64,000 bases of DNA from Candidatus Terrybacteria bacterium RIFCSPHIGHO2_01_FULL_48_17 (lineage in GTDB: Bacteria > Patescibacteriota > Minisyncoccia > Terrybacterales > 2-01-FULL-58-14), in NCBI GenBank assembly GCA_001822835.1, contig MHSS01000008.1:9039-73038 (forward strand). Reading direction: 5' to 3'. The first letter of the stretch is position 1. Each line of letters begins with the position of its first letter. Below the pieces are notes generated by a model, which searched no databases, was not told the DNA's origin, and saw only the letters and a list, made by a program, of their open reading frames with translations. Positions 276-60,316 of the stretch are shown here, piece by piece. A program made the translations under genes and the position numbers.

Positions 276-1430
276 ATGGCATTAGTTTTATATCGTAAAT
301 ACCGTCCTAAAAGCTTTAATGAGCTAGTAGGGCAAGAACACATTGTAACCACCCTTACGAATGCCTTGGCGGCCAATCGGGTTGGGCATGCGTATCTTTT
401 TGCGGGACCGCGCGGCACTGGAAAAACGACCGTTGCGCGACTTTTGGCAAAAGCAGTGGTGTGCGAGGAATCAGGGGACAGGGGACAGGGTACGGGGTAC
501 AGGGGACAGGGGGCAGGATTTACCGAAGCATGTAATGTCTGTATCCATTGCGCGGCCATATTAGAAGGAAAGCATCCAGATTTGGTTGAAATTGATGCTG
601 CATCAAACCGCGGCATAGACGAGATCCGGCAGCTTAAAGAAAGCGTAAGGGTGGCACCCATGCAAGCCCGCATGAAAATATATATTATCGATGAGACACA
701 CATGCTCACCGAGCCGGCATTTAATGCATTACTTAAAACAATTGAAGAGCCGCCCGCGCATGCGCTTTTTATTTTGGCGACGACAGAAATTAATAAGGTT
801 CCGGCAACCATTCAGTCGCGCACCCAGCGATTTGATTTCAAAACCATACCATTGCCACAAATTGTTGGGCGGCTTGGGACAATCGTTGCTGCCGAACAGG
901 TCAAGGTTTCTTTAGAGGCGCTCGAACTTATTGCGCAAACGGCTGACGGTTCGATACGCGATGCCGAATCAATGCTTGAGCAGGTACTCGCATTTTCCCA
1001 AGGGGCAATTGGCGCACAAGAAACGATTGCTATTTTGGGGCTTGCCGATACCGCGCTTGTTCAAGCGATTGCAGAAGCACTTTCCAAAAAAGATTCCGGC
1101 AAAGCCATTGCCATTATTAACGACGCGGTTTCGCGCGGGGTCGACGCTCTCCATCTTACTGCGGGGCTTGCGTCGTATCTACGAGATATATTGCTTTTAT
1201 CTATTGATCCGAAACTTAAAGAATTGCTTTTGCGTCGCGCAAGCACAACCTATGTTGATACCGCACAGAAACACGCAAACGCTTTTTTGCCAGAGGAACT
1301 TACTACGATGATTCCTCAAATCATTGATGCGCTTGAATTGGCGAAGCGATCGCCGGTGCCGCAACTGCCGCTTGAGCTTGCGCTTATTACCATAATGCAA
1401 AAACATCCGGTGTCATTTAACGAAAAATAA
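276..1430 (+). CDS. dnaX: DNA polymerase III subunit gamma/tau (short gamma-only form, 384 aa)
   Basis: N-terminus YRPKSFNELVGQEHIVTTLTNA, Walker A GPRGTGKTT, Zn-module cysteines C..CNVCIHC, and the DnaX box/clamp-loader fold. A glycine-rich heptad insertion SGDRGQGTGYRGQGAG is encoded at 471-518. Confidence 0.9.
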   Translation: MALVLYRKYRPKSFNELVGQEHIVTTLTNALAANRVGHAYLFAGPRGTGKTTVARLLAKAVVCEESGDRGQGTGYRGQGAGFTEACNVCIHCAAILEGKHPDLVEIDAASNRGIDEIRQLKESVRVAPMQARMKIYIIDETHMLTEPAFNALLKTIEEPPAHALFILATTEINKVPATIQSRTQRFDFKTIPLPQIVGRLGTIVAAEQVKVSLEALELIAQTADGSIRDAESMLEQVLAFSQGAIGAQETIAILGLADTALVQAIAEALSKKDSGKAIAIINDAVSRGVDALHLTAGLASYLRDILLLSIDPKLKELLLRRASTTYVDTAQKHANAFLPEELTTMIPQIIDALELAKRSPVPQLPLELALITIMQKHPVSFNEK

Positions 1431-3335: not shown

Positions 3336-3554
3336 ATGCAAAACGACTACGACAATCCCAATCCGCCCACGCGAGATCAGATAAAAATTGGCGAAGCCGT
3401 ATGGATCATCGAAAAAGAACATTACGGAACGGATAATTTTAAGCAAGGGTTTGTGCAGCAAATTCTCACCTCTAAAGCAAGCCATCCGCGCGGCATTAAG
3501 GTACGTTTGACCGACGGCTCCGTTGGCCGCGTCCAATGGATTATGACATCGTAG
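3336..3554 (+). CDS. YwbE/DUF2196-family small protein (72 aa)
   Basis: C-terminal signature HPRGIKVRLTDGSVGRV is characteristic of the DUF2196/YwbE family. Confidence 0.7.
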   Translation: MQNDYDNPNPPTRDQIKIGEAVWIIEKEHYGTDNFKQGFVQQILTSKASHPRGIKVRLTDGSVGRVQWIMTS

Positions 3555-3563
3555 GGCATCTGG

Positions 3564-3929
3564 ATGCACAACGGCATTATGATACGAACTACTTTTATTC
3601 TTTTGCTTACCTTGCTGAATTGGGGCATTATACTTAGCGCGCTTTCATTGGTGCGCGACATGCCCCGACCGCTCTTCGTGTTTTTTCATTATGGCCTCAA
3701 TATTATAGTATTTGGGTTGGTGTTTGGCCTCTTTTATAAATATATAGGGTCCCCTAATCCTTTCACCACAACGATAACTGCCATGGCGGGACTGTTTTTG
3801 TACGAATTCGTGTTTTGGAAATTTGTGTATTCGGGAGATCCCATGCAATACCTCACGTTTATTGATTGGATTGTTCCTGCCTTTCTTATCGCAAGTACTA
3901 TTTATCTAGTTGGAATATACCTTAGTTGA
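3564..3929 (+). CDS. hypothetical integral membrane protein (121 aa, about 4 TM)
   Basis: Long ORF with strongly hydrophobic segments; no recognisable motif. Confidence 0.5.
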   Translation: MHNGIMIRTTFILLLTLLNWGIILSALSLVRDMPRPLFVFFHYGLNIIVFGLVFGLFYKYIGSPNPFTTTITAMAGLFLYEFVFWKFVYSGDPMQYLTFIDWIVPAFLIASTIYLVGIYLS

Positions 3930-3938
3930 TCAAACGGC

Positions 3939-4265
3939 ATGGCAAAAATCGTTTGGGTATTAGTGAACTGCAATAACAAAAAAGAGGCGCAATATATTGG
4001 TATGGCGGCATTGAAGGCACGAATGTGTTCCTGTTTTGATATTATGCCGCGTCTTCAAGCATCATACTTTTGGCCGCCCAGGAAAAATAAAATCGAGCAT
4101 ACCAAAGGAGTAATGCTTATTTTAGAAACCGTAAAAAACAACGTATCGTTACTCCGAAATCTTATTAAAAAAGTCCACAGTGATACGCTTCCTTTTTTAG
4201 GCGTTCTTGAAATCGATGTTGAACAATCGTATGCTACGTGGGTTCGCAATGAAATAAGATCGTGA
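3939..4265 (+). CDS. cutA: divalent-cation tolerance protein CutA
   Basis: 108 aa; pattern VWVLVNCNNKKEAQYIG...SCFDIMPRLQASYFWPPRKNKIEHTKGVMLILETVKN...EIDVEQSYATWVRNEI matches the CutA1 fold and length. Confidence 0.7.
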   Translation: MAKIVWVLVNCNNKKEAQYIGMAALKARMCSCFDIMPRLQASYFWPPRKNKIEHTKGVMLILETVKNNVSLLRNLIKKVHSDTLPFLGVLEIDVEQSYATWVRNEIRS

Positions 4266-4975
4266 CCATGAAACAATTTTTCTGGAAAAACAAAACAGTG
4301 CTTGCAGTAAACGCACACCCAGATGATTTACATTTTATGGCAGGCGCAACGCTTGCGAAGGCCTCGCAAGAGGGCGCGCGTGTGTATTGCGCGGTGTTTA
4401 CAAACGGAAACAAAGGCAATGCGGGGAATCGAAAATTGCGCTCATCACAGTTGGTAACAGTCAGAAGAAAAGAGCAGTTGCGTGCCGCAAAAGTTCTTGG
4501 TGTTGCTAAAGTATTTTTCTTTGGATACCCCGATTGTGAATTGACCCCGACTATGACGGCAAAAAAGAAACTGGTGCGGCTTATCCGTCGCCTGAAGCCG
4601 GACACAGTGATAGGCCTTGACCCTTCTCGTTATTACTCGCCCCTGCAGAACATGGTGCATCATGCCGATCATCGGGCAGCGGGCGAAATTACTCTGGATG
4701 CTTGTTATCCTTTATGCCGAGATCGTTTGTGTATGCCGGATGCAGGGCCGCCCCATAATATCCCTTATGTATTTTTGGTGACGCTCGACGACGCAAATTA
4801 TTTTGAGAATATTACCAAGACGTTAGATACAAAAATACAGGCACTTTCCGCACACAAAAGCCAAATCGCTGATATGCAACAGATGCCACGATTTGTAAGG
4901 CGATGGGCGGCACAGTGTGGGAAAAAATCAAAAAAATACCGTTTCGCCGAATCATTCCGACGTATCTCGTTTTGA
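4262..4975 (+). CDS. PIG-L / LmbE-family N-acetylglucosaminyl deacetylase
   Basis: AHPDDLHF motif, HHADHRAAG metal-binding motif, and a length of about 237 aa. Confidence 0.8.
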   Translation: MTMKQFFWKNKTVLAVNAHPDDLHFMAGATLAKASQEGARVYCAVFTNGNKGNAGNRKLRSSQLVTVRRKEQLRAAKVLGVAKVFFFGYPDCELTPTMTAKKKLVRLIRRLKPDTVIGLDPSRYYSPLQNMVHHADHRAAGEITLDACYPLCRDRLCMPDAGPPHNIPYVFLVTLDDANYFENITKTLDTKIQALSAHKSQIADMQQMPRFVRRWAAQCGKKSKKYRFAESFRRISF

Positions 4976-5853: not shown

Positions 5854-7242
5854 ATGTCTTTCACGCCTCCCACATATCAATATGGGTTTTGGGTGAAAGA
5901 CCGTCCTTATTTTCGTTCTCCACATGGTCTTACAAAAAAAGCGGTTGAAGAATTATCTTTTCAAAAAAACGAACCTGAATGGATGCTCAAAAAACGTCTT
6001 GAGGCATTTGATATCTTTTTTAAAAAAGACATGCCTGAATGGGGCGCCGATCTTTCCGGAATCAGATTTCAAGATATTATATCCTATTTAAAGCCAACGG
6101 CAGAACAATCAAAGCGATGGGAAGACGTTCCGGAAGGTATTAAGTATACCTTTGATCGTCTTGGCATTCCCGAAGCTGAACGAAAATTTCTTGCAGGAGT
6201 TTCTGCACAATTTGATTCCGAGGTTGTATACCATAAGATAAAAAAGAAGTTGGAGCAACAAGGGGTTATCTTTTGCGATACCGACTCGGCCATACGCAAC
6301 TATCCCGAGTTTTTCCAAGAATATTTTGGGAAATTAATTCCCGCAGCCGACAATAAATTTGCCGCACTCAATACGGCCTTCTGGTCCGGAGGATCGTTTG
6401 TATATATTCCGCAGGGGATTCATGTTGATATTCCGTTACAGGCCTATTTCCGCATTAACGCCCGCAATATGGGGCAGTTTGAACGAACGCTTATTATCGC
6501 AGAGCCAGGGTCGTCGGTACATTATATTGAAGGATGCACGGCACCCGTTTACTCCCAAGATGCCTTGCACGCTGCCGTAGTGGAAATTGTTGTGAAAAAG
6601 AATGCCCGCGTGCAATATACTACCATTCAAAATTGGTCTAACGATGTGTACAATCTTGTAACCAAACGTGCTTTTGTAGAGGAAGAAGGAGAAATGTTGT
6701 GGATTGACGGGAATTTAGGAAGCAAGGTAACCATGAAATACCCTTCGGTATTTTTGAAGGGCCAAAAAGCCCGGGGAGAAATACTTTCGCTTGCCGTTGC
6801 GGGTCGCGCCCAGCACCAAGACGCAGGAGGTAAGGCCATACATATAGCCCCCGAAACCTCTTCGCTTATTACTTCAAAATCTGTAAGCCATACCGGAGGC
6901 AGAACCTCGTATCGCGGGCTTGTTCGTGTTACGCCAAATGCAAAACGAGCCCGCTCACATGTACAATGCGATGCGCTTATCCTCGATAAAGATTCTCGAT
7001 CGGATACGTATCCTACGACCCAAACGAATGAAGCATCGGCGCGGCTCTCGCATGAAGCGACCGTTACTAAGCTTTCGGATGAACAGCTTTTCTATCTTAA
7101 AGCCCGTGGTTTAAAAGAAGCCGATGCCCGTTCTATGATTGTGAATGGCTTTTTGGAGCCGGTCGTAAAAACATTACCACTGGAATATGCAATTGAATTA
7201 AACCGTCTCATTGAACTTCAAATGGAAGGGGCGGTGGGGTGA
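5854..7242 (+). CDS. sufB: Fe-S cluster assembly protein SufB
   Basis: Matches typical SufB motifs throughout ([28 protein letters not shown]...HYIEGCTAP...TYPTTQ). Start at internal ATG 5854. Confidence 0.9.
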
Positions 7243-7766
7243 GTTATATGGAGATAGTTATTCGCAGACCACAAACACAAAAATTAAAATATCAATGGAG
7301 AGGAAGGAAAGCGCACAATATAATAATTCGACTGGTGGCGGCAAAGGCCGGCGTTGAGCTTTCGGGAACCTTTATTGCCAAAAAAAATGATTCGTTACCC
7401 ATTTCCATATCTATTCACCACGAAGCACCCGAAACCAAAAGCCGGATTTTTGTGCGTGGAATAGCGCAAGACCGTAGCGTAGTTTCTTTCCGGGCAAATG
7501 CTCGGCTGAAAAAAGGTGCAAGAAAAGCGGATGCGGCCATTAACGCAAAAGCACTTTTGTTATCTCAAAATGCGCGTTGCGAACTGCAGCCGGATCTGGA
7601 AATTGACGAACAAGAAGTACGCGCAACCCATACAACCTTTGTGGGTCCGCTAGATGAAGAAGAAATTTTTTATTTACAGAGCAGAGGAGTGTCCGAAGAA
7701 AAAGCTAAGGAACTTTTGATCAAAGGGTTTCTCAACATAGCGCAGCACGTTAAGCAAGTTAAGTAA
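7239..7766 (+). CDS. sufD: short SufD-like protein (SufBD C-terminal beta-helix domain only, 175 aa)
   Basis: Overlaps sufB by 4 nt. Motifs [48 protein letters not shown] parallel the SufB/SufD C-terminus. Confidence 0.7.
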
Positions 7767-7771
7767 ATTAG

Positions 7772-7800
7772 GCGAGTTAAGCTTTACTCGCTTAACTCGC
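7772..7800 (+). repeat. perfect 11-bp hairpin GCGAGTTAAGC-tttactc-GCTTAACTCGC with flanking TAACTCGC/GTTAAG word repeats
   Basis: Located between the sufD stop (7766) and sufS ATG (7837). No U-run follows, so it is not a classical terminator. Confidence 0.65.
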
Positions 7801-7836
7801 TGTAACTCGCTTAACTTGCTTTATAAGCTCAAAGCC

Positions 7837-16946: not shown

Positions 16947-17972
16947 ATGATTCGTGTTGCTATCAATGGATTTGGTCGTATCGGAAGAGCATTCTTTCGT
17001 CAAGCATTTGATCGAACGGATATAGAAATTGTGGCCATTAATGATCTCGGCGATTTTAACAATCTTGCCTATCTTCTTAAATATGACACGGTGTATGGAC
17101 GTTGGAATAAAGTTATCGAAACAATTCCAGACGGAAATAATCCTTCACTCATCATTCAAGGCAAAAAAATCTTAACTTTTGCTGAGCGGGAACCCGAAAA
17201 GCTCCCATGGAAAGAGCTTGAAATTGACGTTGTAGTTGAGGCAACAGGCGTTTTTGCATCAGAAGAAGGTGGGAAAAAACATCTTGCGGCTGGGGCAAAA
17301 CGAGTAGTTATTTCTGCGCCGGCAAAAGGCAACGTGGAGCATGTGCTCATTGGTGCCAATGATGAAAGATTTCAAGATACGACCTTGGGCGCAATTACTG
17401 CAAACGCATCCTGTACCACCAACGCATCAGTACCTCCCATGGCAGTACTTATGGAATATCCAGGGGTCGCAAAAGGGATTTTACAGACCGTACATGCCTA
17501 TACGGCAACGCAAACGATAGTGGATGGGCCCGGCGGTAAGGGTGATTTTCGCAGGGGACGAGCTGCTGCTCAAAATATTATTCCGGCACACACCGGTGCC
17601 GCTGATGCAGTAGTAAAATCATTACCATCGCTGGATGGAATTTTTGATGGCCTTGCGATTCGCGTACCAGTTCCGGTAGGATCCCTTTCGATGCTTACGA
17701 TCCTCGCAAAGCGGAAAACAAGTGTTGACGAAATAAATAATCATTTCCGCAAGGCCGTACAACAGCCCCGATGGAAAGGGATACTTGAAATAACCGAGGA
17801 GCAGATCGTATCCTCGGATATTATCGGCACAACCGCCGCAGCCATTGTTGACCTTACATTTACGCGCGTGGTTGACGGCGACCTGGTCACCGTATTCTCT
17901 TGGTATGATAACGAATGGGCATACTCCCATACTTTAATAGAACATGTATTAAGGGTTGGAAAACGTCTTTGA
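16947..17972 (+). CDS. gap: type I glyceraldehyde-3-phosphate dehydrogenase
   Basis: INGFGRIGR Rossmann motif and catalytic ASCTTNA motif. Confidence 0.9.
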   Translation: MIRVAINGFGRIGRAFFRQAFDRTDIEIVAINDLGDFNNLAYLLKYDTVYGRWNKVIETIPDGNNPSLIIQGKKILTFAEREPEKLPWKELEIDVVVEATGVFASEEGGKKHLAAGAKRVVISAPAKGNVEHVLIGANDERFQDTTLGAITANASCTTNASVPPMAVLMEYPGVAKGILQTVHAYTATQTIVDGPGGKGDFRRGRAAAQNIIPAHTGAADAVVKSLPSLDGIFDGLAIRVPVPVGSLSMLTILAKRKTSVDEINNHFRKAVQQPRWKGILEITEEQIVSSDIIGTTAAAIVDLTFTRVVDGDLVTVFSWYDNEWAYSHTLIEHVLRVGKRL

Positions 17973-17986
17973 GCATAATCCTGCCT

Positions 17987-19279
17987 ATGAAATATATTTC
18001 ATTTTTATTGCTTTGCCTTTTCGTTGTTTCGAGTGCGGCATCAGCGTCTTCTCCCGTCACGCCCGAAACCATACCGAGCCAAACACTGGGACAAAACCAA
18101 TACTATTCCGTAGTATTTGACGCCGAAGGAGAAGCTGCTGTAGCTGCAAAACTCACCTTTGAAAATACTACTGAGACGGCGCTCTCTGAAATCTCGTTTG
18201 AAATTCCGGGCACATCAGTTCGAATTATAAATACGGTAGAGGAAGTTTCAAAAACGCAAAAATGCCTTCGATATGATTATTCGGGATGCGAACCCGACTC
18301 TTCGGGAAAAGAATCATGCGCGTATCCGTGTCTGCAGTACGGATATGATTATCCGGCACCTAATTATTATTTGCTTACCCCCCGTAGCGAGCAGCTTTCT
18401 TCATCAATGAAAGTAACCATACCGCTTATCGCCGCGGTAAGACCCCAGGAACAGTTTTCGATCTTACTCTATTACAAGGCAGAAGGTTATGCGGATAAAA
18501 AACTTGGAGTATTTAAGTTTTCTTTTGAAACGGTAAAAATTCCCTATGATGTACAAAGTGTACGAGTTGCGATCAACGTCCAAGAGGGGCTTTCTTTGGC
18601 AGGAGGCGGGGCGGAAACAAATTATCGCCCTAATTTTTCTGCGGTGGAGAGTGTTGCCCTTCCGGCTGCTGGCGCGCCGGATGCTTCGTTAAACGATTTC
18701 TCACAACGCATCATTTATGAGCAGGGCTTTGTAAAACAAACCTCGGGACTTGACCCTTGGGAATCATTTTCTGTTGACGGAAAATATGCTTCAAATAGCA
18801 TCCTGCTTGCGCTTCCTGTTTTGCTCAATGCGTTGATAGGAATTGCGGTTGTTGCCGTTGTTGTATGGTTCGTTTTTAAAAAAATGCGTCGCGTCATGAT
18901 TCAAAAGCGCGTTTCTAGCACCCTCACATCTCAAACATTTTTCGGAACCCCATGGGTACAAGCGAGTGCCGCAGGTTTTGGGGTGGCATTTATAACTGCG
19001 GTATTCTCGCTTCTTTTAGTTTGGTTTGGAGAGAATATTAACCGTTATGTTTCGTATGGAGCATTTTCAGGGCTTTTTACGGCCTTAATGTTTCTTTCAC
19101 TTATAGGATTCAACCTTCTCGTCTTTTTCGGCGTCCCTCTTTTCTTCTTGCGAAAATACCGTTGGCCGACCGCATTATTAACGCTTACAATAGAGCTCGG
19201 CGCGCTGTTTGTTTTATCGCTTCTATTTCTCTTGCTTCTTAATTCTTTTTCGGGTAATTATCCAGTTCCTTTATATTAA
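17987..19279 (+). CDS. hypothetical secreted/membrane protein (signal peptide plus four C-terminal TM helices)
   Basis: N-terminal MKYISFLLLCLFVVSSAASA, a Cys-containing extracytoplasmic domain, and a hydrophobic C-terminus. Start at ATG 17987. Confidence 0.5.
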   Translation: MKYISFLLLCLFVVSSAASASSPVTPETIPSQTLGQNQYYSVVFDAEGEAAVAAKLTFENTTETALSEISFEIPGTSVRIINTVEEVSKTQKCLRYDYSGCEPDSSGKESCAYPCLQYGYDYPAPNYYLLTPRSEQLSSSMKVTIPLIAAVRPQEQFSILLYYKAEGYADKKLGVFKFSFETVKIPYDVQSVRVAINVQEGLSLAGGGAETNYRPNFSAVESVALPAAGAPDASLNDFSQRIIYEQGFVKQTSGLDPWESFSVDGKYASNSILLALPVLLNALIGIAVVAVVVWFVFKKMRRVMIQKRVSSTLTSQTFFGTPWVQASAAGFGVAFITAVFSLLLVWFGENINRYVSYGAFSGLFTALMFLSLIGFNLLVFFGVPLFFLRKYRWPTALLTLTIELGALFVLSLLFLLLLNSFSGNYPVPLY

Positions 19280-19302: not shown

Positions 19303-19806
19303 ATGAAAATCTATCTAGCTGCTGATCATAACGGTTTCGCCCTTAAAGAAAAAATTAAAAAATGGCTTAATGCATGGGAATATGAATATGAAGACATTGG
19401 TCCGTTCGTATTCGACCCCAAAGACGATTACCCGGATTTCATAATTCCCGCGGCTCGAGCGGTAGCACAAGATCCAGATACCAGACGCGCGATTATTCTG
19501 GGTTTTAGCGGACAAGCAGAAGCAATGACTGCCAACCGCATGAAAAACGTTCGAGCTTCTGTATACTACGGTGAGCCTTCCGCATTATCGGATGTGGGAG
19601 GAAAGCGTACGGACAAACCAAGGGATTTGCTTGTGCTCACAAGAGAAGATAACGATTCAAACATACTCTCGCTTGGTGCCGGATTTCTTTCAGAAAAACA
19701 GGTAAAAGAAGCAATTACGCGATGGCTGAAAGCGCCCTTTACGGGACAAGAACGCCATATCCGGCGCATCAACAAAATAGATCAAGGAATAGGGAATAGG
19801 GAATAG
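19303..19806 (+). CDS. rpiB: ribose-5-phosphate isomerase B (LacAB_rpiB family)
   Basis: MKIYLAADHNGFALKEKI N-terminus. The C-terminal tail QGIGNRE* is encoded by a GGGAATA tandem repeat. Confidence 0.8.
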   Translation: MKIYLAADHNGFALKEKIKKWLNAWEYEYEDIGPFVFDPKDDYPDFIIPAARAVAQDPDTRRAIILGFSGQAEAMTANRMKNVRASVYYGEPSALSDVGGKRTDKPRDLLVLTREDNDSNILSLGAGFLSEKQVKEAITRWLKAPFTGQERHIRRINKIDQGIGNRE

Positions 19807-19844
19807 GGAACACAGCAATTTTTCTTATACCTCATACCTTATAC
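19786..19844 (+). repeat. two adjacent heptamer tandem arrays: (GGGAATA)x3-4 at 19786-19812 and (CTYATAC)x3 at 19824-19844
   Basis: ggaatagggaatagggaatagggaaca overlaps the rpiB stop codon. cttatacctcataccttatac lies just before the rpe start. Confidence 0.8.
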
Positions 19845-19853
19845 TTCAGGCCT

Positions 19854-20516
19854 GTGACCGAGATAATTCCTACCATTCTTGTAAAAACACAAGAAGAAGC
19901 AATGCAGCGCATTAAGATAATCGAAGGGCGACTTCCATGGATGCAAATTGATGTTGTTGATGGCAAATTCGCCCCAAATATTACATGGAGTGATCCTGAT
20001 TTTATTAAAATGCTTGATACCGCAATCCGTTTTGAAATTGATCTTATGGTCGTCGATCCAGAAATACATATAAAACAATGGTCAAAAGCGATTCCCCGAA
20101 TAGGCCGTATATACTTCCATCAAGAAACAGCAGGAAATCGCACGCACATTATTATTGATCAAATTCAAAAAGTAGGAATCGAGGCCGGCATGAGCATTAA
20201 TCCTAAAACAAGAATTGATGTACTATATCCTTTCGCCAAACGGCTTGATGCCGTGTTATTATTAGGGGTAGAACCGGGATTTAATGCTGCTCCCTTTAAT
20301 GAGAAAACGATCAAGAAGGTACAACAATTTCACAAAAAATTTCCAGAGCTTCCTATAACAGTCGACGGAGGAGTAAAACCGAGGATCGCAAAAAAGCTTG
20401 TTGAGGCAGGAGCCACACGCCTTGCTGTTGGCAGCTTTATCTGGAATGGGACAAATCCTCTTATACAACTTAAGGCCCTTCAAGAAGATATTCAACAAGT
20501 AGATCAAAACAAATAA
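19854..20516 (+). CDS. rpe: ribulose-phosphate 3-epimerase
   Basis: (beta/alpha)8 signature IDVVDGKFAPNITWS and ITVDGGV. GTG start. Confidence 0.8.
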   Translation: MTEIIPTILVKTQEEAMQRIKIIEGRLPWMQIDVVDGKFAPNITWSDPDFIKMLDTAIRFEIDLMVVDPEIHIKQWSKAIPRIGRIYFHQETAGNRTHIIIDQIQKVGIEAGMSINPKTRIDVLYPFAKRLDAVLLLGVEPGFNAAPFNEKTIKKVQQFHKKFPELPITVDGGVKPRIAKKLVEAGATRLAVGSFIWNGTNPLIQLKALQEDIQQVDQNK

Positions 20517-20533
20517 CATTTTCTTTATACATT

Positions 20534-21550: not shown

Positions 21551-22852
21551 ATGGCTTTGGCTATTCAAAAACTTGCCCAAATCTTAAGAACTCGAGAAGA
21601 AATACTTGAAACATTTGGTATCGCCATGAACAAATTGGTCGGAATAAAGAATGTTTTTGAAGAAATAGCAGAAGAGAACGATTCGCAAGTACGTAGAGCA
21701 CTAGGAGACCTTGGTTTTTCAAAAGATAGTTCGGCCGAAGATGTGTATCATGCGCTTATTACCAAATTGCGACAAACCGATGAAAAAATATCGCAATTTC
21801 TTAATACGCCCACATGCGCGACGCCCTCCGGTTGCAAAACCGTAATCGACTTAGCAAAAACGATCAAAGGAACAACCACTGGTTATTTTTTAAAAAAGGA
21901 AATCGCAGAAACGTTACTACGAAAGAATCCTCCCCAAAATCTCCTAAAGGAACTTGGGGAAAAAACAATCGACGAGCTTTTGCAAGAAAGCTCTGTTTCT
22001 GAAATTTTTCCGGCAATCCGTTTTGCTGAAGACCCCCGCTGGCTCAATGATGTATTTTTTCGACCATACGCATTTTTGACCCCGGATGATTTTGAAGAGC
22101 GCGAGGTATCGATCACCATACTCCCAGAACGTTGGAGAGACATTGGGAAAAAATTTGTCGGAAAAAAACTACACCATATCAGTCATCTTAAAGAATTAGG
22201 CATCATTTTTGTTTTGCCGATTTCTGAAGAAAATCATGGCGGTACTCCCGCAGGAACAACGCTGGAGATATTAACGCTTCTTCTCCATTATCTAAACGAA
22301 GTGCCCTTTTACTCACGAATTTTCAAAAGATTTGCAAAAGATCCAAAGCATTTTGCGTCCCATCTTACCTCTGCGCTCCGTGGTGATGTGCGCGATCATA
22401 TCCCCGACGGGGAACGAGCAGAGAGGCGCTTTCTTATTGTGCAAAGATATCTTGCGAAAGATGATCCATCTGATCCGCGGCTTTTTATTCCACATCTTAA
22501 TCCCGAAGCGGTTCATTGGTCATATGTTATGCGCTCACTTACTGAATTTGGAAAATCGCATCCTGAGCTTGGTTTTGGGTTTTGGGATGGCCTGGACCAC
22601 ATTGGAGATTTTTTCCCTCTTTCAGCAGCTAAAGAGGAAAATATGATGCGGGGAGTTTCAGAAGAAATTTTAGTGCCATTCAATTTTATTGATACACTCA
22701 TTTCACACAATCGTTACTCATCCGTGTTTACAAAATATCTCTACCATCAACAAGAAGCGCTTTGGAACCGCCTATTTAGCGGGTGGCTTGGTAAAGCAAG
22801 AATGGAAGGGATGGTCGAAGATAATTTAGAAAAAGGGTATATAGAAATATAA
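21551..22852 (+). CDS. hypothetical protein (433 aa) embedded in a sugar-phosphate operon
   Basis: Long ORF in the same orientation and tightly packed between the PfkB kinase and fba. No motif recognised. Confidence 0.55.
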   Translation: MALAIQKLAQILRTREEILETFGIAMNKLVGIKNVFEEIAEENDSQVRRALGDLGFSKDSSAEDVYHALITKLRQTDEKISQFLNTPTCATPSGCKTVIDLAKTIKGTTTGYFLKKEIAETLLRKNPPQNLLKELGEKTIDELLQESSVSEIFPAIRFAEDPRWLNDVFFRPYAFLTPDDFEEREVSITILPERWRDIGKKFVGKKLHHISHLKELGIIFVLPISEENHGGTPAGTTLEILTLLLHYLNEVPFYSRIFKRFAKDPKHFASHLTSALRGDVRDHIPDGERAERRFLIVQRYLAKDDPSDPRLFIPHLNPEAVHWSYVMRSLTEFGKSHPELGFGFWDGLDHIGDFFPLSAAKEENMMRGVSEEILVPFNFIDTLISHNRYSSVFTKYLYHQQEALWNRLFSGWLGKARMEGMVEDNLEKGYIEI

Positions 22853-42213: not shown

Positions 42214-43401
42214 TTAAGGCAAAAGGGATTTCGCCACATCAAGTTGCGGATCAAGCCCCGCTTCCCGCTCTTCCGGTTTTATTTCAACAAGAATATCTGG
42301 ATTCAAACCTGCCTCCGCTAATGAATTTCCTGCGGGGGTACGCCACTCCCCTACTGTAATTTTTAATACGGCACCACTTTGTTTTAAGCGTATTAGTTCC
42401 TGAATTGATCCTTTGCCAAATGTTTCTGATCCAACAAGCTTTATATCACGCTCGTCTCGTAACGCACCGGCAAGAATTTCTGCTGCAGATGCGGTTCCTT
42501 CGTTCATCAAAACAACAGTCGGAAAATCGGCAAGAAGGCCTGGTCCTGATGAACGATGGATTATATCAGCTTCCCCACGCTTTCGTTCGATAACAACCAC
42601 AGAATCTTCTGGAAGAAGAAATCCCGCAACCTTAACGGCTTGATCCAGAAAACCGCCTGGATTATTTCGTAAATCAAGAATCAATCCCCTGGCATTTGCT
42701 TTAGTAATTTGTGCAGCTGCGGCTTGAAATGCAACAGCGGCTTCTGAGCTAAAACTATGAAACTGAACGGTCGCGATACCATCCTCAATTTTTAAATCCA
42801 ATGGAGGCACTACAATTTGCGCACGCGTGATAGAAATTTCTTTGGCTGCTTCCTGATTCCTCGAAATACGAAGGGTAACGATTGTTCCCGCAGGGCCCCG
42901 AATCTTGGCCACCGCCTCCTCCAGCGTTATGTCTTCGGTCGACGTATCATCAATCGCAAGGATTATATCCCTCGCTTCAAGCCCCGCCTCTTTCGCGGGA
43001 GTGCCTTCCAGAGGAGCAATTATAGCAAGCAAACCATCTCTGAAACCGATTTCCGCACCAATACCCTCAAAATGACCGCTGGTATCCTCCAAAAAACGTT
43101 TTGCTTCATCAGGATCAAAAAAGGTGGTATAGTCATCCGTTGATTCGCGCACCAAACCCCTTATTGCTCCCCATAAGAGATTCTGCTCTGAAAGATTTTC
43201 GGGATGGATATAATTATCTTTGAGAATTTGAATTGTTTCCGCTAGCAAAGAAATATCGATATTGGAATCTTCCGGATTTGCTTTCCAGGAAGATAATGAA
43301 AAGATTTTATCTCCCCATACACGCGCAATAACAGCTCCAAAAACAAACCCGGTAATAAGAAATCCGCACAGAATAAAAATGAAAATAATCTTATTTTGCA
43401 T
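42214..43401 (-). CDS. carboxyl-terminal processing protease (S41 family) with PDZ domain
   Basis: PDZ segment, catalytic region GGFLDQAVKVAGFLL...NEGTASAAEILAGALRD, and a signal anchor. Confidence 0.85.
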   Translation of the reverse strand: MQNKIIFIFILCGFLITGFVFGAVIARVWGDKIFSLSSWKANPEDSNIDISLLAETIQILKDNYIHPENLSEQNLLWGAIRGLVRESTDDYTTFFDPDEAKRFLEDTSGHFEGIGAEIGFRDGLLAIIAPLEGTPAKEAGLEARDIILAIDDTSTEDITLEEAVAKIRGPAGTIVTLRISRNQEAAKEISITRAQIVVPPLDLKIEDGIATVQFHSFSSEAAVAFQAAAAQITKANARGLILDLRNNPGGFLDQAVKVAGFLLPEDSVVVIERKRGEADIIHRSSGPGLLADFPTVVLMNEGTASAAEILAGALRDERDIKLVGSETFGKGSIQELIRLKQSGAVLKITVGEWRTPAGNSLAEAGLNPDILVEIKPEEREAGLDPQLDVAKSLLP

Positions 43402-43415
43402 GATAAAGAAAATGA

Positions 43416-47318: not shown

Positions 47319-48268
47319 TATTCTTTAATTTCTCCTACCTTATGCAGCCATGCATCCCGTATGCCAAGCATAACGCCAGCAGCAAATGGGCGTTTTTCGG
47401 GCAAAAACAGCCATTTAACGGCATGCCATGCGGCTCTCGGTACACTCCACAGATAAGCAAGAATAATCTTTCCAAACGGGGCGTTGCGCAAACATAAAAA
47501 AAGACCGCCCCTCACGTGATAGCGCACATATTTCACCGATCGTTCGGGCGTGCTTGCCGCACCCTTATGCCACACCTTTGCGGCAGGAATAACGGCACAC
47601 AACCAACCTGCTTTTTTCGCACGCAGCGACCATTCGGCATCCTCGTAATATAAAAAATAGTCTTCTGGCATAAGATGGATTTCCTCAAGAATTTGTCGTC
47701 GGATCAACAAACAGCCACCGGTTGCGTATCCGGTCTCCACATACTCATGCCCATTCAACTGTCCAGAATCCATCTCGTTGACGAAGCGATGTTTTCCTCT
47801 CGTGTATAACCAATTGATATCAGCACCCGCAAACCAAAACTGATTTGTTTTTTCCCCATTGTCTTTCATTCGATATATTTTAGGATTTGCCAAGCCAATA
47901 GTATGATGCTTTTCCATCACGTCAAGCATCTGTTTTAAGAACCCGGGGTCCACGATAGTATCGTTATTCAATAAAAGGACATAGCCAGCACCTTTGTGGT
48001 AGGCAATTTTAATGCCTATATTATTGCCGCCGGCAAAACCGAGGTTCTCCTTGTTGGCAATCAGGGTATAGGGTACAGGGTACAGATCCTTATTTTTATC
48101 GATAAATTCTTGGATTTTCGTTACGGACTCATCTTCTGATCCGTTATCAACGACAAGTACTTCAAAAACGGGCTCTTTGACAACCAAAAGCGACTCGAGG
48201 CATCGCAAGGTGTCTTTCCATCCATTCCAATTCAAGACAATTATGGTGGTTTTAGTCGGTTTTTCCAT
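47318..48268 (-). CDS. GT2-family glycosyltransferase (GT-A)
   Basis: TIIVLNWNGWKDTLRCLESL...VVDNGSEDES (DxD) N-terminal domain. Contains an in-frame GGGTAYA x3 repeat encoding YPVPYTL. Confidence 0.85.
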   Translation of the reverse strand: MEKPTKTTIIVLNWNGWKDTLRCLESLLVVKEPVFEVLVVDNGSEDESVTKIQEFIDKNKDLYPVPYTLIANKENLGFAGGNNIGIKIAYHKGAGYVLLLNNDTIVDPGFLKQMLDVMEKHHTIGLANPKIYRMKDNGEKTNQFWFAGADINWLYTRGKHRFVNEMDSGQLNGHEYVETGYATGGCLLIRRQILEEIHLMPEDYFLYYEDAEWSLRAKKAGWLCAVIPAAKVWHKGAASTPERSVKYVRYHVRGGLFLCLRNAPFGKIILAYLWSVPRAAWHAVKWLFLPEKRPFAAGVMLGIRDAWLHKVGEIKE

Positions 48269-51147: not shown

Positions 51148-52593
51148 TTACCGTTTGCGTCTCGTCCCCTGCATCATATTTAGAAGTTTTTGTGCAACGC
51201 GCCACTGGTCACCCGCACCAACCGCTAACAGGATGGCGTTTTGAGGAAGTATGTTGCGGAGCACCTGCGCGGCCTCTTGGTGTGTTGCAAAATGAGGCGC
51301 CCGCAGAGTTTTTGCAAGCTCCCTTGATCCTATTTTCCCCTTCCGCTCGCGCGCAGAACCGTATGTAGTAAGGATATACACCCTATCCGCAAGATGAAGC
51401 GCTTTTACAAAATCACGGAAAAGCGCTTGAGTACGTGAGAAAGTATGCGGCTGGAAAAGTATATGTACCGGCCGCCTGGGAAAAGCTTGTCTTGCTGCCC
51501 TTATGGTTACTGCAATTTCCGTTGGGTGATGCGCATAATCATCAATCACTACAGGGGATAAGGTGTGGGGGACAAAACGATGAGGAGAGAGAATTTCGAA
51601 ACGGCGACGAGTGCCCTGAAATGTTTTAAGTGCTTTTTTGATATGTAAAAATGGATAGCCGAGTGCCAAGCCGCACGCAATTGCTGCTACAGCATTATAT
51701 GCGTGGTGTTCGCCAAATAATTGAAGCGTCACTGCGCCAAGGCGTTTTTTATTGAAAAACACAGAAAACAATGTTCCCCGGGGGCCGACCGTAATGTTGG
51801 CGACACGAACCACGCTTCGGGGGTGTTTACCGAACGAGAAAACTTTGTGCTGCTGCTGTTGCGCCACGCGCCATGCTACCCTGTTATCTCGTGGAACGAT
51901 AATTATTCCCCTTGTTTTGAGCCGTCCGATAAACTTTTTGAATGCCCAGGCATATTTCGCAAAACTAGGAAACACATCGGGGTGATCCCATTCTACGTTC
52001 GTCAAAACTATCATATTTGGTTGATAGTGAAGAAACGCGTTTTTATATTCATCGGCCTCCAAGACAAAGTAGGGCTTAGTGCTAAGCGTTGAGTGCTTAG
52101 TAACACGCGCATTCGATTCCCAATTAAGAACCTCTGCCCCAATAAGCGCGGTTGGGTCGGCGCCGAGTTTCTCCAACATCACTCCAATCATTGCTGCAGT
52201 AGTTGATTTACCATGAGTGCCAGCAACTGCAATACCAAAAGAATTATTGAATAACTCCCCCACCGCTTCAGGATACGATAATACCGGAATGCTCCTTCTC
52301 TTCGCCTCTCGCACTTCACCGTAACCTGATCCCTTGTCCCTGGTCCTTGGTCCCTGCATATACGCATTCGACGCAACCACAAAATCCGCACCCCTTACGT
52401 TCTTTGGAGAAAACCTCTCTAGTACCGAAATACCCAACCGTTTTAAAATCGCGTCAGTATAAAATTTTTCTTTCGTGTCTGATCCCTGTACTCTATACCC
52501 CAATCCCTTCAGTATCTGCGCCAATCCCGCCATACCGGCGCCCTTAATGCCAACCATCCATATTTTTGCGTTCTTCCTAAAAACCATATGCAT
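51148..52593 (-). CDS. murC: UDP-N-acetylmuramate--L-alanine ligase
   Basis: MVGIKGAGMAGLAQIL, P-loop GTHGKSTTAAM, Mur ligase middle and C domains. Carries the in-frame insertion GPRTRDKGSG (52327-52356). Confidence 0.9.
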   Translation of the reverse strand: MHMVFRKNAKIWMVGIKGAGMAGLAQILKGLGYRVQGSDTKEKFYTDAILKRLGISVLERFSPKNVRGADFVVASNAYMQGPRTRDKGSGYGEVREAKRRSIPVLSYPEAVGELFNNSFGIAVAGTHGKSTTAAMIGVMLEKLGADPTALIGAEVLNWESNARVTKHSTLSTKPYFVLEADEYKNAFLHYQPNMIVLTNVEWDHPDVFPSFAKYAWAFKKFIGRLKTRGIIIVPRDNRVAWRVAQQQQHKVFSFGKHPRSVVRVANITVGPRGTLFSVFFNKKRLGAVTLQLFGEHHAYNAVAAIACGLALGYPFLHIKKALKTFQGTRRRFEILSPHRFVPHTLSPVVIDDYAHHPTEIAVTIRAARQAFPRRPVHILFQPHTFSRTQALFRDFVKALHLADRVYILTTYGSARERKGKIGSRELAKTLRAPHFATHQEAAQVLRNILPQNAILLAVGAGDQWRVAQKLLNMMQGTRRKR

Positions 52594-53981: not shown

Positions 53982-55847
53982 ATGTTTGTCGATGTGCTTC
54001 CTGTAATCGGAATTGGTTTTGGGATCAAGGCGCTGCTTACATATCGTAGTCAAAAATCCTTACACGAGGGGGCGCTCGTTATTGTTCCATTTGGACCACG
54101 ACGTATACCCGCCTTCGTGGTTTCATTAAGAAAATCGAAACCGCCCTTTCTGAAGATACGCGATATTGAAAAAACTGTAACCTCCTCTCCATTTCTCATC
54201 AAATCCCAATGGAAAATGCTTTTGTGGCTCGCGGAAGCGACGGCTACGCCACCAGGACAGGTTGCTCGGCTTTTTGTGCCGCCTTGGGTGATGGGTGAAA
54301 CAGAACATCTCAAAAATCCTTCCCAATCCTTTAAACCACGCAAAGGACAAAGAAAAACTGTCTTTGACTTTGGAAATAATCGAAAAATGCGGAAGGCAAT
54401 CCAAAGATCGCTTCTGGCAAAAAGGCAGGTACTTGTTTTGGCACCAACCAATGCACTCGCTGAAAATTTAGCCGAATACCTAAGACATTTCCAACCGACG
54501 CTTTATTTTGGAGGTAACCGAACGAAGGAAAGGGATCTTTGGAATGATATTCGTATAGGAAAAAGCGCATTGATAATCGGAAGTCGGTCAGCGCTATTTC
54601 TCCCTTTTTCCAATCTTGATCTCCTTGCCATAACAGATGAAACAAATCCTTTGTATTTTCATGAATTTACAAGACCCAAATTCCATATTCCTACTGCAGC
54701 AAAATTTCTTGCACAAAAAGTTCATGCCACGCTTCTTTTGACCGGAACTGTACCTTCCCTTGATACGTGGCGACGATATGAAAAAGCCATATCCCTCACG
54801 CTCCCACAACGCAATATACAAATTCTGGATCTAAAGAAAAGAAAACGCCTTCAGGTATTCACAAAAGACGCCTTGATGCTGATCGACAAGACCATTAACA
54901 ATGGAGGAAAGATATTTATCTTTGCCGCGCGTCGGGGAGAGGCGTCTGTGGTTGTCTGTCGCGACTGCGGTGCGGCGCTGGTATGTCCGCGCTGCGAAGC
55001 CCCGATGCCCGTTTTCCGAAAGAATTATAAATCAGGAGAAATAGTATTAAGATGTCGGCATTGCGGCCAAGAACTGCGCATGGCATTGGCTTGTCCGGTC
55101 TGCAGAAGCTTACGCCTTACGCCACGGGGCATAGCTGCCCAAGCCATTGCCTCAGACCTTGCCCACCATTTTCCGCATGCAGCCCTCTTTGAATTAAGTA
55201 GTGATGCGACTTCGAATCAAAAGGCCCAAAAAAAGATCCTCGACGAGTTTGCAAAAACACCCAAAAGCATACTTATCGCAACGCATATGGCATTGGCTAT
55301 GAATGTACCGCAAACCGATCTTATTATTGTTGCAACAGCAGAACAATTAGTTGCAATGCAAGATTTCCGTGCCGAAGAACGTTTTTTTGAAACAATAATC
55401 CGTCTTAAGGGCATGCTGGAAAAAACAGGTACGCTCGCAATTCAGGCGTGGCGTACCCAAAATACCCTCCTGGACACCGCGGCGCGGGGCGATTGGAACC
55501 ATTTTGCGAAACAGGAATTAATATTGCGCAAATCGCTTGCGTGGCCTCCATTTCGTCGTATTGCAAAATTGACGCTTGAAAATAAAAACGCCGAAGTGGC
55601 GGAACGGCAATCCCAAAAACTTATTTTACAATTAAAAAAATCTTTATCCCTTATCCCTTATCCCATCTCCCCCGAAGTAATCGGCCCTTCCCCCGGTCTT
55701 ATTCCTCGCCCGCGCGGGAAGCATATACGTATCCTTATTGTAAAATGGAAGCCGGGAGGAGAATTTGATACATTGGTTGAGAGAAAAATAATAAAAATTA
55801 CTCCCCCAGAATGGGAGATCACTATCAATCCTTCATCAATTATATAA
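53982..55847 (+). CDS. priA: primosomal protein N' (PriA) homolog with degenerate Walker A/B but intact Cys4-Cys4 zinc module
   Basis: Motif Ia QVLVLAPTNALAENL and motif V/VI regions align with PriA. Zn module CRDCGAALVCPRCEAPM...CRHCG...CPVCRS. Position of GxGKT reads FGNNRKMRK; position of DEEH reads DETN. Confidence 0.8.
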   Translation: MFVDVLPVIGIGFGIKALLTYRSQKSLHEGALVIVPFGPRRIPAFVVSLRKSKPPFLKIRDIEKTVTSSPFLIKSQWKMLLWLAEATATPPGQVARLFVPPWVMGETEHLKNPSQSFKPRKGQRKTVFDFGNNRKMRKAIQRSLLAKRQVLVLAPTNALAENLAEYLRHFQPTLYFGGNRTKERDLWNDIRIGKSALIIGSRSALFLPFSNLDLLAITDETNPLYFHEFTRPKFHIPTAAKFLAQKVHATLLLTGTVPSLDTWRRYEKAISLTLPQRNIQILDLKKRKRLQVFTKDALMLIDKTINNGGKIFIFAARRGEASVVVCRDCGAALVCPRCEAPMPVFRKNYKSGEIVLRCRHCGQELRMALACPVCRSLRLTPRGIAAQAIASDLAHHFPHAALFELSSDATSNQKAQKKILDEFAKTPKSILIATHMALAMNVPQTDLIIVATAEQLVAMQDFRAEERFFETIIRLKGMLEKTGTLAIQAWRTQNTLLDTAARGDWNHFAKQELILRKSLAWPPFRRIAKLTLENKNAEVAERQSQKLILQLKKSLSLIPYPISPEVIGPSPGLIPRPRGKHIRILIVKWKPGGEFDTLVERKIIKITPPEWEITINPSSII

Positions 55848-55853
55848 TATCTT

Positions 55854-56420
55854 ATGGCACAAACTGATATCGTACCCTATACAAACCGCCGTATTCGACG
55901 GAAAGGCGAAGCGCTTCCAAAATCCACAGATGTTGCCGTGCTTGTTGAACAAATGAGAAAAGCCATGAAAATACATGATGGTATTGGTATTGCGGCACCG
56001 CAAATTGGCGAGGCGGTACGAGTTTTTATAATAGAAAAAAAGCTTTTCCCCGGCGCCGATCTCCCATCAGACGTGTTTATCAACCCCAAAATACTAAGAA
56101 AGGGATTTAAACGAGAGATCTCGGAAGAAGGATGTCTTTCGGTGCCCAACGTATTCGGACAGGTTTCGCGAAGCCTAAAAATTACCATTGAGGCCTTCGA
56201 TCAAAATTGGAAAAGGTTTCGTCTATCCACGCAAGAACTTCTTGCGCGAGTCCTGCAACACGAACTTGACCATCTTGATGGAACGCTTTTTATTGATAAA
56301 GCAGACGCCGATACGCTACATGAGGTGGTATATGACAAAGAAGGAAAACCGACATTGCGTCCTTGGACGCAAAAATCCAAAATCCAAAATCCAAATGATA
56401 AAACAAATTCTAATTTCTAA
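55854..56420 (+). CDS. def: peptide deformylase
   Basis: GIGIAAPQIG, EGCLSVP, HELDHLDG motifs. The C-terminal tail KSKIQNPND is encoded by an AAAATCC x3 repeat. Confidence 0.9.
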   Translation: MAQTDIVPYTNRRIRRKGEALPKSTDVAVLVEQMRKAMKIHDGIGIAAPQIGEAVRVFIIEKKLFPGADLPSDVFINPKILRKGFKREISEEGCLSVPNVFGQVSRSLKITIEAFDQNWKRFRLSTQELLARVLQHELDHLDGTLFIDKADADTLHEVVYDKEGKPTLRPWTQKSKIQNPNDKTNSNF

Positions 56421-56474
56421 AACGGACGGGTGTTAATAAATTTTTGATTTTGATATTGTTTTGGATTTTGAGCT

Positions 56475-60268: not shown

Positions 60269-60292
60269 TCCGCCCATTCGGCGGATTTTTTA
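60268..60292. terminator. bidirectional rho-independent terminator ATCCGCC-cattc-GGCGGAT + T6 between convergent HIT and nth
   Basis: Canonical GC stem and T-run directly at the HIT stop. Confidence 0.75.
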
Positions 60293-60316
60293 TTCCCTAC
60301 TTTCTATTCCCTACTT
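60291..60316. repeat. tandem 12-mer TATTCCCTACTT x2 (period 14) containing TATTCCC, the reverse complement of the GGGAATA unit
   Basis: tattccctactt-tc-tattccctactt; the second copy overlaps the nth stop codon. Confidence 0.75.

Follow-up and report, generated by a model that had tools for sequence, protein, structure and literature searches.

A convergent pair of heptamer repeats at the rpiB-rpe junction of Candidatus Terrybacteria

This report concerns the junction between rpiB (ribose-5-phosphate isomerase B) and rpe (ribulose-phosphate 3-epimerase) in a 64,000-nucleotide stretch of DNA, referred to as the window, from Candidatus Terrybacteria, a lineage of the Candidate Phyla Radiation (CPR) with a genome of 44% GC. 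Two arrays of seven-nucleotide units lie across the rpiB stop codon and the spacer that follows it and, judged from their sequences, they belong together as a single pair of heptamer simple sequence repeats, inverted and convergent. Comparison with related sequences shows that the whole module (19786-19853) is a derived insertion, which separated two overlapping genes, made a tail and a stop codon for RpiB, and changed the rpe start from ATG to GTG. We consider it probable that the module was born by slippage and is an essentially neutral member of the class of G-rich (GGGANTN)n heptamers known from Xanthomonas. Near-neutrality is the most likely state of the module at present, and it is judged to be neither a G-quadruplex (G4) element nor a phase-variation switch.

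Layout and origin of the junction

The junction is built from the following features, to which a related array elsewhere in the window is added.

19303-19806, + strand: rpiB, 167 amino acids; Pfam LacAB_rpiB, 8.5e-32
19786-19810, + strand: array 1, GGAATAG x3.6, perfect (equivalent to GGGAATA); hairpin 5' arm; encodes the RpiB tail GIGNRE
19804-19806, + strand: rpiB stop codon TAG, from the third repeat unit
19811-19820, + strand: hairpin loop CACAGCAAUU in the minimum free energy structures
19821-19848, + strand: hairpin 3' arm, a degenerate inverted copy of array 1, with array 2 inside
19824-19844, + strand: array 2, CTTATAC CTCATAC CTTATAC, 9 nt before the rpe GTG
19846-19853, + strand: TCAGGCCT, which holds the sole Shine-Dalgarno (SD)-like AGG before rpe; missing in one assembly (L003)
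19786-19853, + strand: whole insert, ~68 nt, with both arrays, the loop and a 9-nt tail; absent from relatives
19854-20516, + strand: rpe, GTG start; Pfam Ribul_P_3_epim, 1.1e-35
60287-60317, - strand: second GGGAATA-type array, (GTAGGGAATAGAAA)x2; its first TAG is the stop codon of an nth-like gene (60311-60313)

Read along the forward strand, the junction consists of AAA ATA GAT CAA, GGAATAG x3 followed by GGAA, CACAGCAATTTTT, CTTATAC CTCATAC CTTATAC, TTCAGGCCT, and GTG ACC GAG. The two heptamer arrays that had been noticed at the rpiB stop and in the spacer are recovered by Tandem Repeats Finder, array 1 at 19786-19810 (period 7, 3.6 copies, 100% matches, score 50) and array 2 at 19827-19848 (period 7, 3.1 copies, 80% matches, score 30), and the Pfam matches indicate that the flanking genes are genuine. 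Array 1 is far beyond chance, with 18 matched positions against 0.47 period-7 runs of at least nine matches per shuffled window. Array 2 is unremarkable by itself; its significance comes from the period that it has in common with array 1 and from its complementarity to array 1. The native part of RpiB ends at ...RRINKIDQ, the codon of its last residue (CAA, 19783-19785) being native, and array 1 then encodes G-I-G-N-R-E and the TAG stop. The initial annotation had assigned the last seven codons and the stop to the repeat; it was right about the TAG and one codon too generous, the repeat-derived codons being six. Its spacings of 12 and 10 nt also need adjustment, to 13 nt between the arrays (19811-19823) and 9 nt between array 2 and rpe (19845-19853). 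Array 1 places TAG in all three frames, and the heptamer in arrays of at least three units stops all three frames. The two genes are now 47 nt apart and co-directional; GAPDH is encoded upstream of rpiB and a PfkB kinase downstream of rpe.

The two arms are significantly complementary. Over its 26 nt, array 1 pairs with 19821-19846 at 22 of 26 positions, by 17 Watson-Crick and 5 G.U pairs. Pairing of at least 22/26 with array 1 occurs at three positions in the 64,000, the other two being registers of the 60287-60317 array, and the chance of such a partner within ~80 nt is p about 0.003. On the minus strand, array 2 reads as (TAAGGTA)n, to be compared with (TAGGGAA)n for array 1. Nine differences separate array 2 from the perfect complement, namely five C->T, one T->C, and three periodic T->A changes, one in each unit. 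Since the differences recur from unit to unit, array 2 appears to have expanded from a unit of its own that had already diverged.

The ancestral state of the junction can be read from relatives. The RpiB sequences of 21 aligned orthologues stop at ...RRIxKID and roughly one further residue, and only the window protein, not the other 20, has the GIGNRE tail. This answers the question, raised with the first description of the repeats, of whether RpiB orthologues end before the tail: they do. The nearest relatives that span the junction (L012 and L013, 70-72% identity) read GAA CAA TGA CTG AAA TT, in which the two genes overlap at ATGA (GAACAATGACTGAAATT); in L011 (67% identity) the overlap is 8 nt. 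The corresponding region of the window reads GATCAA, 68 nt, and then GTGACCGAGATA (GTG ACC GAG ATA). The N-terminus of the window Rpe, V/MTEIIPTILVK, aligns with MTEIIPTILVK of L013, and the ATG of the relatives occupies the homologous position. The overlap in the nearest relatives implies that 19786-19853 is a lineage-specific insertion, placed exactly in the former overlap. In the control genome loci (1.15 Mb, mostly CPR, best identity 53%), 32 of the 46 adjacent rpiB-rpe pairs are spaced by -8 to +6 nt, and tight juxtaposition is therefore the norm.

A comparable event is seen in a distant lineage. At 3893-3985 of a Levyibacteriota metagenome-assembled genome (MAG; L023, RpiB 46% identical), an independent heptamer inverted pair occupies the rpiB-rpe junction. 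Its array, GAATTAG GAATGAA GAATAAG GAATAAG GGATAA, encodes the RpiB tail ...LGMKNKE* together with the stop codon and is followed by the inverted partner CCCTAATTCCTAATTCATACTTCATAATTC; the z-score of the hairpin is -3.2. In both genomes the repeat units resemble the terminal codons of rpiB (AAA-ATA-GAT against AATAGGG in the window, AAA-ATT-AAG against AATTAGG/AATAAGG in L023), and this resemblance, seen twice, suggests that the arrays were seeded in place.

The module may then have come about as follows. It would have been inserted, or have grown in place, exactly at the ancestral rpiB/rpe ATGA overlap, through replication slippage in 7-nt steps, a process that appears to be unusually frequent in this genome. 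The seed was possibly the set of rpiB terminal codons named above, and fold-back or quasi-palindrome template switching could have produced the second arm as an inverted copy, which then expanded from a diverged unit. Its present effect would be none, or at most that of a generic intercistronic stem-loop, here a weak one, of the sort that occurs at other expanded CPR rpiB-rpe junctions. The fixed insert uncoupled two pentose-phosphate genes, added a junk tail to RpiB, and altered the start codon of rpe, which makes it a clean example of heptamer microsatellites remodelling gene boundaries in a streamlined CPR genome.

Changes of other kinds were noted at the same junction in relatives. RpiB of L012 and L013 ends in ...QIEEIEQ*, a terminus that results from a 9-nt tandem duplication (AAATTGAAG AAATTGAAC), and the 3' end of rpiB in the sister lineage has thus also gained a short tandem duplication. 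The Spechtbacteria L014-L016 carry an open reading frame (ORF) of 80-82 amino acids with no Pfam hits between rpiB and rpe (3518-3766), and ATTACTG/ATTACTT x5 in the spacer after rpe (4542-4575).

Relation to known heptamer repeats

Tandem heptamers of the form GGGAATC/(GGGANTN)n were described in Xanthomonas, with 186 arrays in X. campestris pv. campestris (Xcc), and GGGGA(C/T)T heptamers in Nostoc, by Rehm et al. 2015 (PMC4692102). Membership of the class is defined in that work by a tandem heptamer of at least two units (at least 14 bp) with a unit fitting GGGANTN. Four units are preferred, and the arrays are mostly intergenic (89-93% in Xanthomonas), located between co-directional ORFs within 0-50 bp of the stop codon and on the coding strand, with overlap of the stop included; 70 of the 186 are convergent inverted pairs with stem-loop potential. 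The unit of the present module, GGGAATA, fits GGGANTN and is one base away from GGGAATC, and the array is perfect over 3.6 units and 25 bp. It lies on the coding strand, overlaps the rpiB TAG, is located between co-directional ORFs of housekeeping function, and has a convergent inverted partner (19821-19846) with stem-loop potential. There are also differences from the class as published. The module has three G3 tracts, below the minimum of four in the G4-capable subset, and its partner arm has degenerated strongly. Its host is a CPR organism with a small genome of 44% GC rather than a large high-GC proteobacterium or a cyanobacterium, and its genome has several G-rich arrays in-frame inside essential genes.

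Slippage-type repeats, as the arrays had been called at the outset, is a fitting description: they look like simple sequence repeats, and period 7 is enriched in the window. Perfect tandem runs with at least nine matched positions number seven for period 7 against 0.47 in shuffled sequence, an excess of ~15-fold, and every other period from 2 to 15 has at most two perfect runs. The control loci yield 1.29 period-7 runs per 64 kb (1.15 Mb), with patchy enrichment in some lineages. On the G-rich strand the heptamer units of the window are related to one another (GGGAATA, GGGATAA, GGGGACA, GGGTACA, GGGACCA), and the window holds two GGGAATA-type loci (19786 and 60287) besides G-rich heptamer arrays at 472, 48062, 52325 and 55644. 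The over-representation of period 7 relative to other periods resembles the general excess of heptamer repeats attributed to Mrazek (2007), as cited in PMC4692102, where slippage tied to the footprint of the polymerase active site is put forward as the cause.

The unit itself is widespread. At least 120 metagenome contigs (L097-L216), with GC contents from 31% to 73%, matched in a scan for (GGGAATA)3, and the median array among them has 3.9 units. The ORF context of the 98 arrays located away from contig ends was evaluated with start-to-stop ORFs of at least 100 amino acids and random-position controls, because every frame of the repeated unit contains TAG and spurious ORFs arise in high-GC contigs. 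For 59% of the 98 listed arrays, compared to 10% of random positions, a sense ORF terminates inside the array or no more than 60 nt upstream of it. In 32 of the 98 listed cases the stop codon lies 1-56 nt upstream of the array, and the TAG of the unit itself therefore cannot explain the stop-codon bias. In all 16 of the clearly paired cases among the matches listed, the C-rich partner is downstream of the G-rich array and never upstream, and the hairpins of these pairs fold strongly from either strand (-36 to -109 kcal/mol). In the examples, the stop codon is followed by (GGGAATA)3-6 and, after 10-40 nt of spacer, by a degenerate TAYTCCC array, with the next gene behind it. The GGGAATA unit is thus common in environmental metagenomes and follows the same positional rule as the published class. 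The present module carries this class into the CPR, along with its position at the stop codon, its preference for four units and its convergent pairs. The literature searched gave no account of heptamer arrays in CPR. One metagenome contig (L195) carries four (GGGAATA)3.9 blocks with TC between each.

Other repeat families show partial likeness to the module. Cyanobacterial short tandemly repeated repetitive sequences of Calothrix have the heptamer units CCCCAGT, TTGGTCA and CAACAGT, which differ in sequence from the arrays of the window. Enterobacterial repetitive extragenic palindromic (REP) sequences and bacterial interspersed mosaic elements (BIMEs) are imperfect palindromes in 3' untranslated regions and intercistronic spacers; REPs are dispersed, near-identical, and linked to REP-associated tyrosine transposases (RAYTs). 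The module is likewise an imperfect intercistronic palindrome, for which protection of mRNA 3' ends or differential operon expression is conceivable, but the window has only one copy of it, with arms made of tandem repeats. A dispersed mobile element of the REP/BIME type or of the type of a miniature inverted-repeat transposable element was discarded as an explanation, neither arm having further copies beyond chance in the window. MacGregor (2015, PMC4679880) described direct repeats of the heptamer TAACTGA in Beggiatoaceae, Cyanobacteria and Bacteroidetes. They resemble the module in forming short arrays (2-6 copies) in intergenic positions near gene boundaries, in their scattered lineages, and in a suspected post-transcriptional role; they differ in lying upstream of starts, having one fixed unit, and being almost never inverted, whereas the module sits at a stop codon with an inverted partner.

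Variation, structure and alternative explanations

RpiB of the window is 100% identical to a protein of the Candidatus Terrybacteria MAG RIFCSPHIGHO2_01_FULL... from the Rifle aquifer, and at least 24 contigs encode exactly this protein. Rifle samples in which the contig is present include SRR3989342, JGI 3300002502, 3300025313 and 3300025317, and the ERZ272548xx set. No unit-number variant was found in ten aligned contigs from ten samples, in which both arrays have the same copy number, and the module is fixed and static in the sampled population. The initial annotation had suggested comparing strains or reads for unit-number variation, and had predicted an altered RpiB C-terminus or stop upon gain or loss of a unit. 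Such variation is not seen in the ten assemblies, which are consensus sequences of one clonal population, and the predicted alteration applies in one direction: loss of one unit gives a read-through RpiB of 201 amino acids (+34), and gain of one unit leaves RpiB unchanged, with the stop in the third unit. Since a gain is silent at the protein level, the exact-protein lookup would have found gain variants. No read-through RpiB was present among 5.8 billion clusters, where the 90% cluster is a single sequence and the next match is 72% identical. The junction at any copy number gave 0 matches in the metagenome scan, whose collection does not contain the Rifle contigs. Among the ten contigs the one variant of the junction is L003 (JGI 3300025317), which lacks the 8 nt TCAGGCCT located between array 2 and the rpe GTG. 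This contig is otherwise free of mismatches and has a single gap over 6.7 kb (99.88% identity); the deletion is flanked by CT microhomology, removes the sole SD-like AGG, and sets the rpe GTG against the base of the hairpin, which is kept. It could represent a real subpopulation or an assembly artefact.

These data bear on the idea of a phase-variable contingency locus, whose units would be gained or lost by slippage and so switch the C-terminus or stop of RpiB, or alter the spacing to rpe. A perfect tandem repeat does overlap the stop codon, loss of a unit does yield a longer protein, and the L003 deletion indicates that the junction is mutable. The array has, however, just 3.6 units, neither unit-number variants nor the read-through product were encountered, and rpiB and rpe are housekeeping genes rather than the surface, host-interaction or restriction-modification genes typical of contingency loci. 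Phase variation was also judged unlikely for the (GGGANTN)n class by Rehm et al. 2015, and we give this explanation almost no credence. A regulatory role as a G-quadruplex, whether in the mRNA or on the coding strand, is equally hard to believe. Oligonucleotides with the related GGGAATC x4 form G4 in vitro according to the same study, and two other heptamer arrays of the window, at 474-513 (+) and 55648-55673 (-), carry the only canonical G4 motifs of the window. At the module, in contrast to the perfect four-tract motif first reported for it, the G tracts are GG, GGG, GGG and GGG with no other G-run within reach; a regular-expression scan of the whole window on both strands for four G3+ tracts with N1-7 loops found none there, and G4-aware folding gave no quadruplex for the module, compared to -8.4 kcal/mol for a control with four GGG tracts. 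The hairpin would moreover compete with a G4 for the same bases. Proteins that read heptads offer a further model. The omega repressor of pSM19035, a ribbon-helix-helix protein, recognises 7-bp heptads in direct and inverted orientation; CsrA-like proteins bind GGA, and HutP-like proteins bind UAG-N4-UAG. By analogy, the arrays could be DNA sites for an omega-repressor-like protein, with its architecture of direct followed by inverted heptads, or RNA sites for a CsrA-like or HutP-like protein, as the RNA of array 1 reads UAG-N4-UAG-N4-UAG and contains four GGA motifs. S1, Csp or CsrA was proposed to act on TAACTGA heptamer arrays (MacGregor 2015, PMC4679880). The heptamer unit differs at every array of the window genome, so that no single protein would fit all of them, and with no candidate binding protein identified the likeness is one of resemblance; such a role is very improbable.

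The structural evidence calls for closer weighing, and several points count against the account of a neutral, slippage-born module. Folding predicts a weak, interrupted hairpin of 22 bp, with the rpiB stop in its 5' arm; at -14.8 kcal/mol its z-score is about -1.6, and 11-16 out of 200 shuffled sequences fold equally well. The sense RNA folds at -14.8 kcal/mol and the antisense at -5.8, and five of the nine arm differences are C->T changes that preserve pairing as G.U; this sense-strand asymmetry could, on the folding model, reflect selection for mRNA structure, contrary to neutrality. The ancestral state is inferred from just two or three close relatives, and the population evidence comes from consensus assemblies of one near-clonal population, with contigs 99.9-100% identical over 1.7-10.5 kb. 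The module holds no exact GGGAATC unit, which the operational screen in Xanthomonas requires. Finally, near-identical heptamers at stop codons in distant phyla hint at a common function or mechanism beyond simple slippage. With regard to the unit, the GGGAATC rule is a species-specific screen, and its authors used GGGGA(C/T)T for Nostoc; apart from this rule and the G4-capable subset, the module as read from its sequence fits all positional and architectural features of the class. With regard to the strand asymmetry, the G.U bias may be C->T drift, because sense RNA gives the better fold in only 4 of the 16 paired modules from metagenomes, a count on which sense-RNA-specific selection across the heptamer class was rejected.

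The same observations decide how far a functional intercistronic stem-loop of the REP/BIME kind can be entertained, one that would protect rpiB from 3'-5' decay or set the rpiB:rpe ratio after translational coupling was lost. The arms are significantly complementary (22/26), pairing is kept on the sense RNA through G.U, and the hairpin survives the L003 deletion. Other expanded CPR rpiB-rpe spacers mostly hold strong stem-loops of unrelated sequence (z -2.75 to -10.9, six loci), and repeat-armed inverted pairs occur at two more operon junctions of the window, sufD-sufS (z = -6.3) and def-fmt. Against this stand the weak fold, the expectation of C->T decay from mutational drift at 44% GC, and the lack of sense-strand bias in the metagenome pairs. 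No intrinsic terminator was detected by a scan of 19786-19853, where a U-tract is missing and the 3' arm is followed by CUUCAGGCCUGUG; the module contains no match to a promoter consensus; and no Rfam 15 family matches it, the whole window giving three tRNAs only. A model in which the ribosome unmasks the rpe start was dropped, since the unpaired probability of 19848-19856 falls from 0.41 in the free RNA to 0.25 with 19790-19820 masked, the wrong direction. We regard a functional stem-loop as unlikely. Decidedly less credible still is the broader proposal that GGGAAT-type arrays with a downstream inverted partner are a distinct cross-phylum element of gene 3' ends, made or maintained by a dedicated mechanism and not by random slippage, with a range that includes Xanthomonas, many bacteria of soil and peat, and two or more lineages of the CPR. 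If it were true, the convergent orientation could stem from the addition of G-rich repeats to both 3' ends of a break before rejoining or, alternatively, from a conserved contact that a protein or the ribosome makes at stop codons; the same process would build repeat-armed hairpins at several Terrybacteria operon junctions and write in-frame peptide insertions into dnaX, the Mur ligase gene, priA and dinB. The broader question of why near-identical, convergently paired GGGAAT arrays mark stop codons across distant bacteria is sharpened, though not answered, by their wide phylogenetic spread and strict orientation.

Further repeats and genes of the window

The second GGGAATA-type array belongs to the nth-like gene at 60311-60940 (-) and is followed by a terminator-like hairpin in common with the convergent HIT gene. 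Several heptamer or 14-mer arrays are located within genes. In dnaX (276-1430), CAGGGGA x6.6 at 472-517 forms an in-frame insertion of 16 amino acids, SGDRGQGTGYRGQGAG, between the Walker A region and the cysteines of the Zn module, with several canonical G4 motifs on the coding strand. Such arrays are also present in the genes of a Mur ligase (52325-52356, QGPRTRDKGSG), a glycosyltransferase of family 2 (GT2; 48062-48085, LYPVPYTL), PriA (55644-55671, LSLIPYPISP, together with a minus-strand G4 motif) and DinB (59276-59307, LNPNDQTPMTKW). The Pfam domains of the Mur ligase, GT2 and DinB span 15-26 residues more than the profile does, as expected for insertions; the PriA_C match is without net insertion (95 residues against 95 profile positions).

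Two further operon junctions carry repeat-armed inverted pairs. At 7744-7821, a 9-mer array of AGCAAGTTA-like units (x4.3) is directly followed by the reverse-complement array GCTTAACTC (x4.4). The resulting hairpin is strong (-39.5 kcal/mol, z = -6.3); it covers the stop codon of a gene for a SufD-like protein (7239-7766) and stops short of sufS, the true start of which is likely an ATG near 7837; the anatomy is that of the rpiB-rpe module with unrelated sequence. At 56372-56483, AAAATCC x3.4 is located in the C-terminal extension of peptide deformylase, with a significant inverted partner in the TTTTGA/GGATTTT array just before fmt (19/24 Watson-Crick, genome fraction 2e-5; true fmt start ATG 56491). 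This brings the operon junctions of the window with a repeat-armed inverted pair to three. No common sequence was found among the three junction modules. TAGGAAT x2.3 lies at 2726-2741, 3 nt upstream of a tRNA gene (2745-2815).

The exact 11-mer ATTTTCTTTAT occurs twice in the window, at 20518-20528 (+) and 43403-43413 (-), each time directly before a start codon, that of pfkB at 20534 and that of the ORF 42214-43401 (-), and its near-copy ATTTTTCTTAT opens array 2. As a shared upstream motif it was set aside, as it is not enriched when one mismatch is allowed (7 against 5.4 expected); TTTCTTATAC occurs 12 times against 5.9 expected, and the lead was dropped. Two conserved ORFs without Pfam match, 21551-22852 (433 amino acids) and 17915-19279 (about 430-454 amino acids), are located within the sugar-phosphate cluster GAPDH-rpiB-rpe-pfkB-FBA, and the 433-residue gene is also present in L011.

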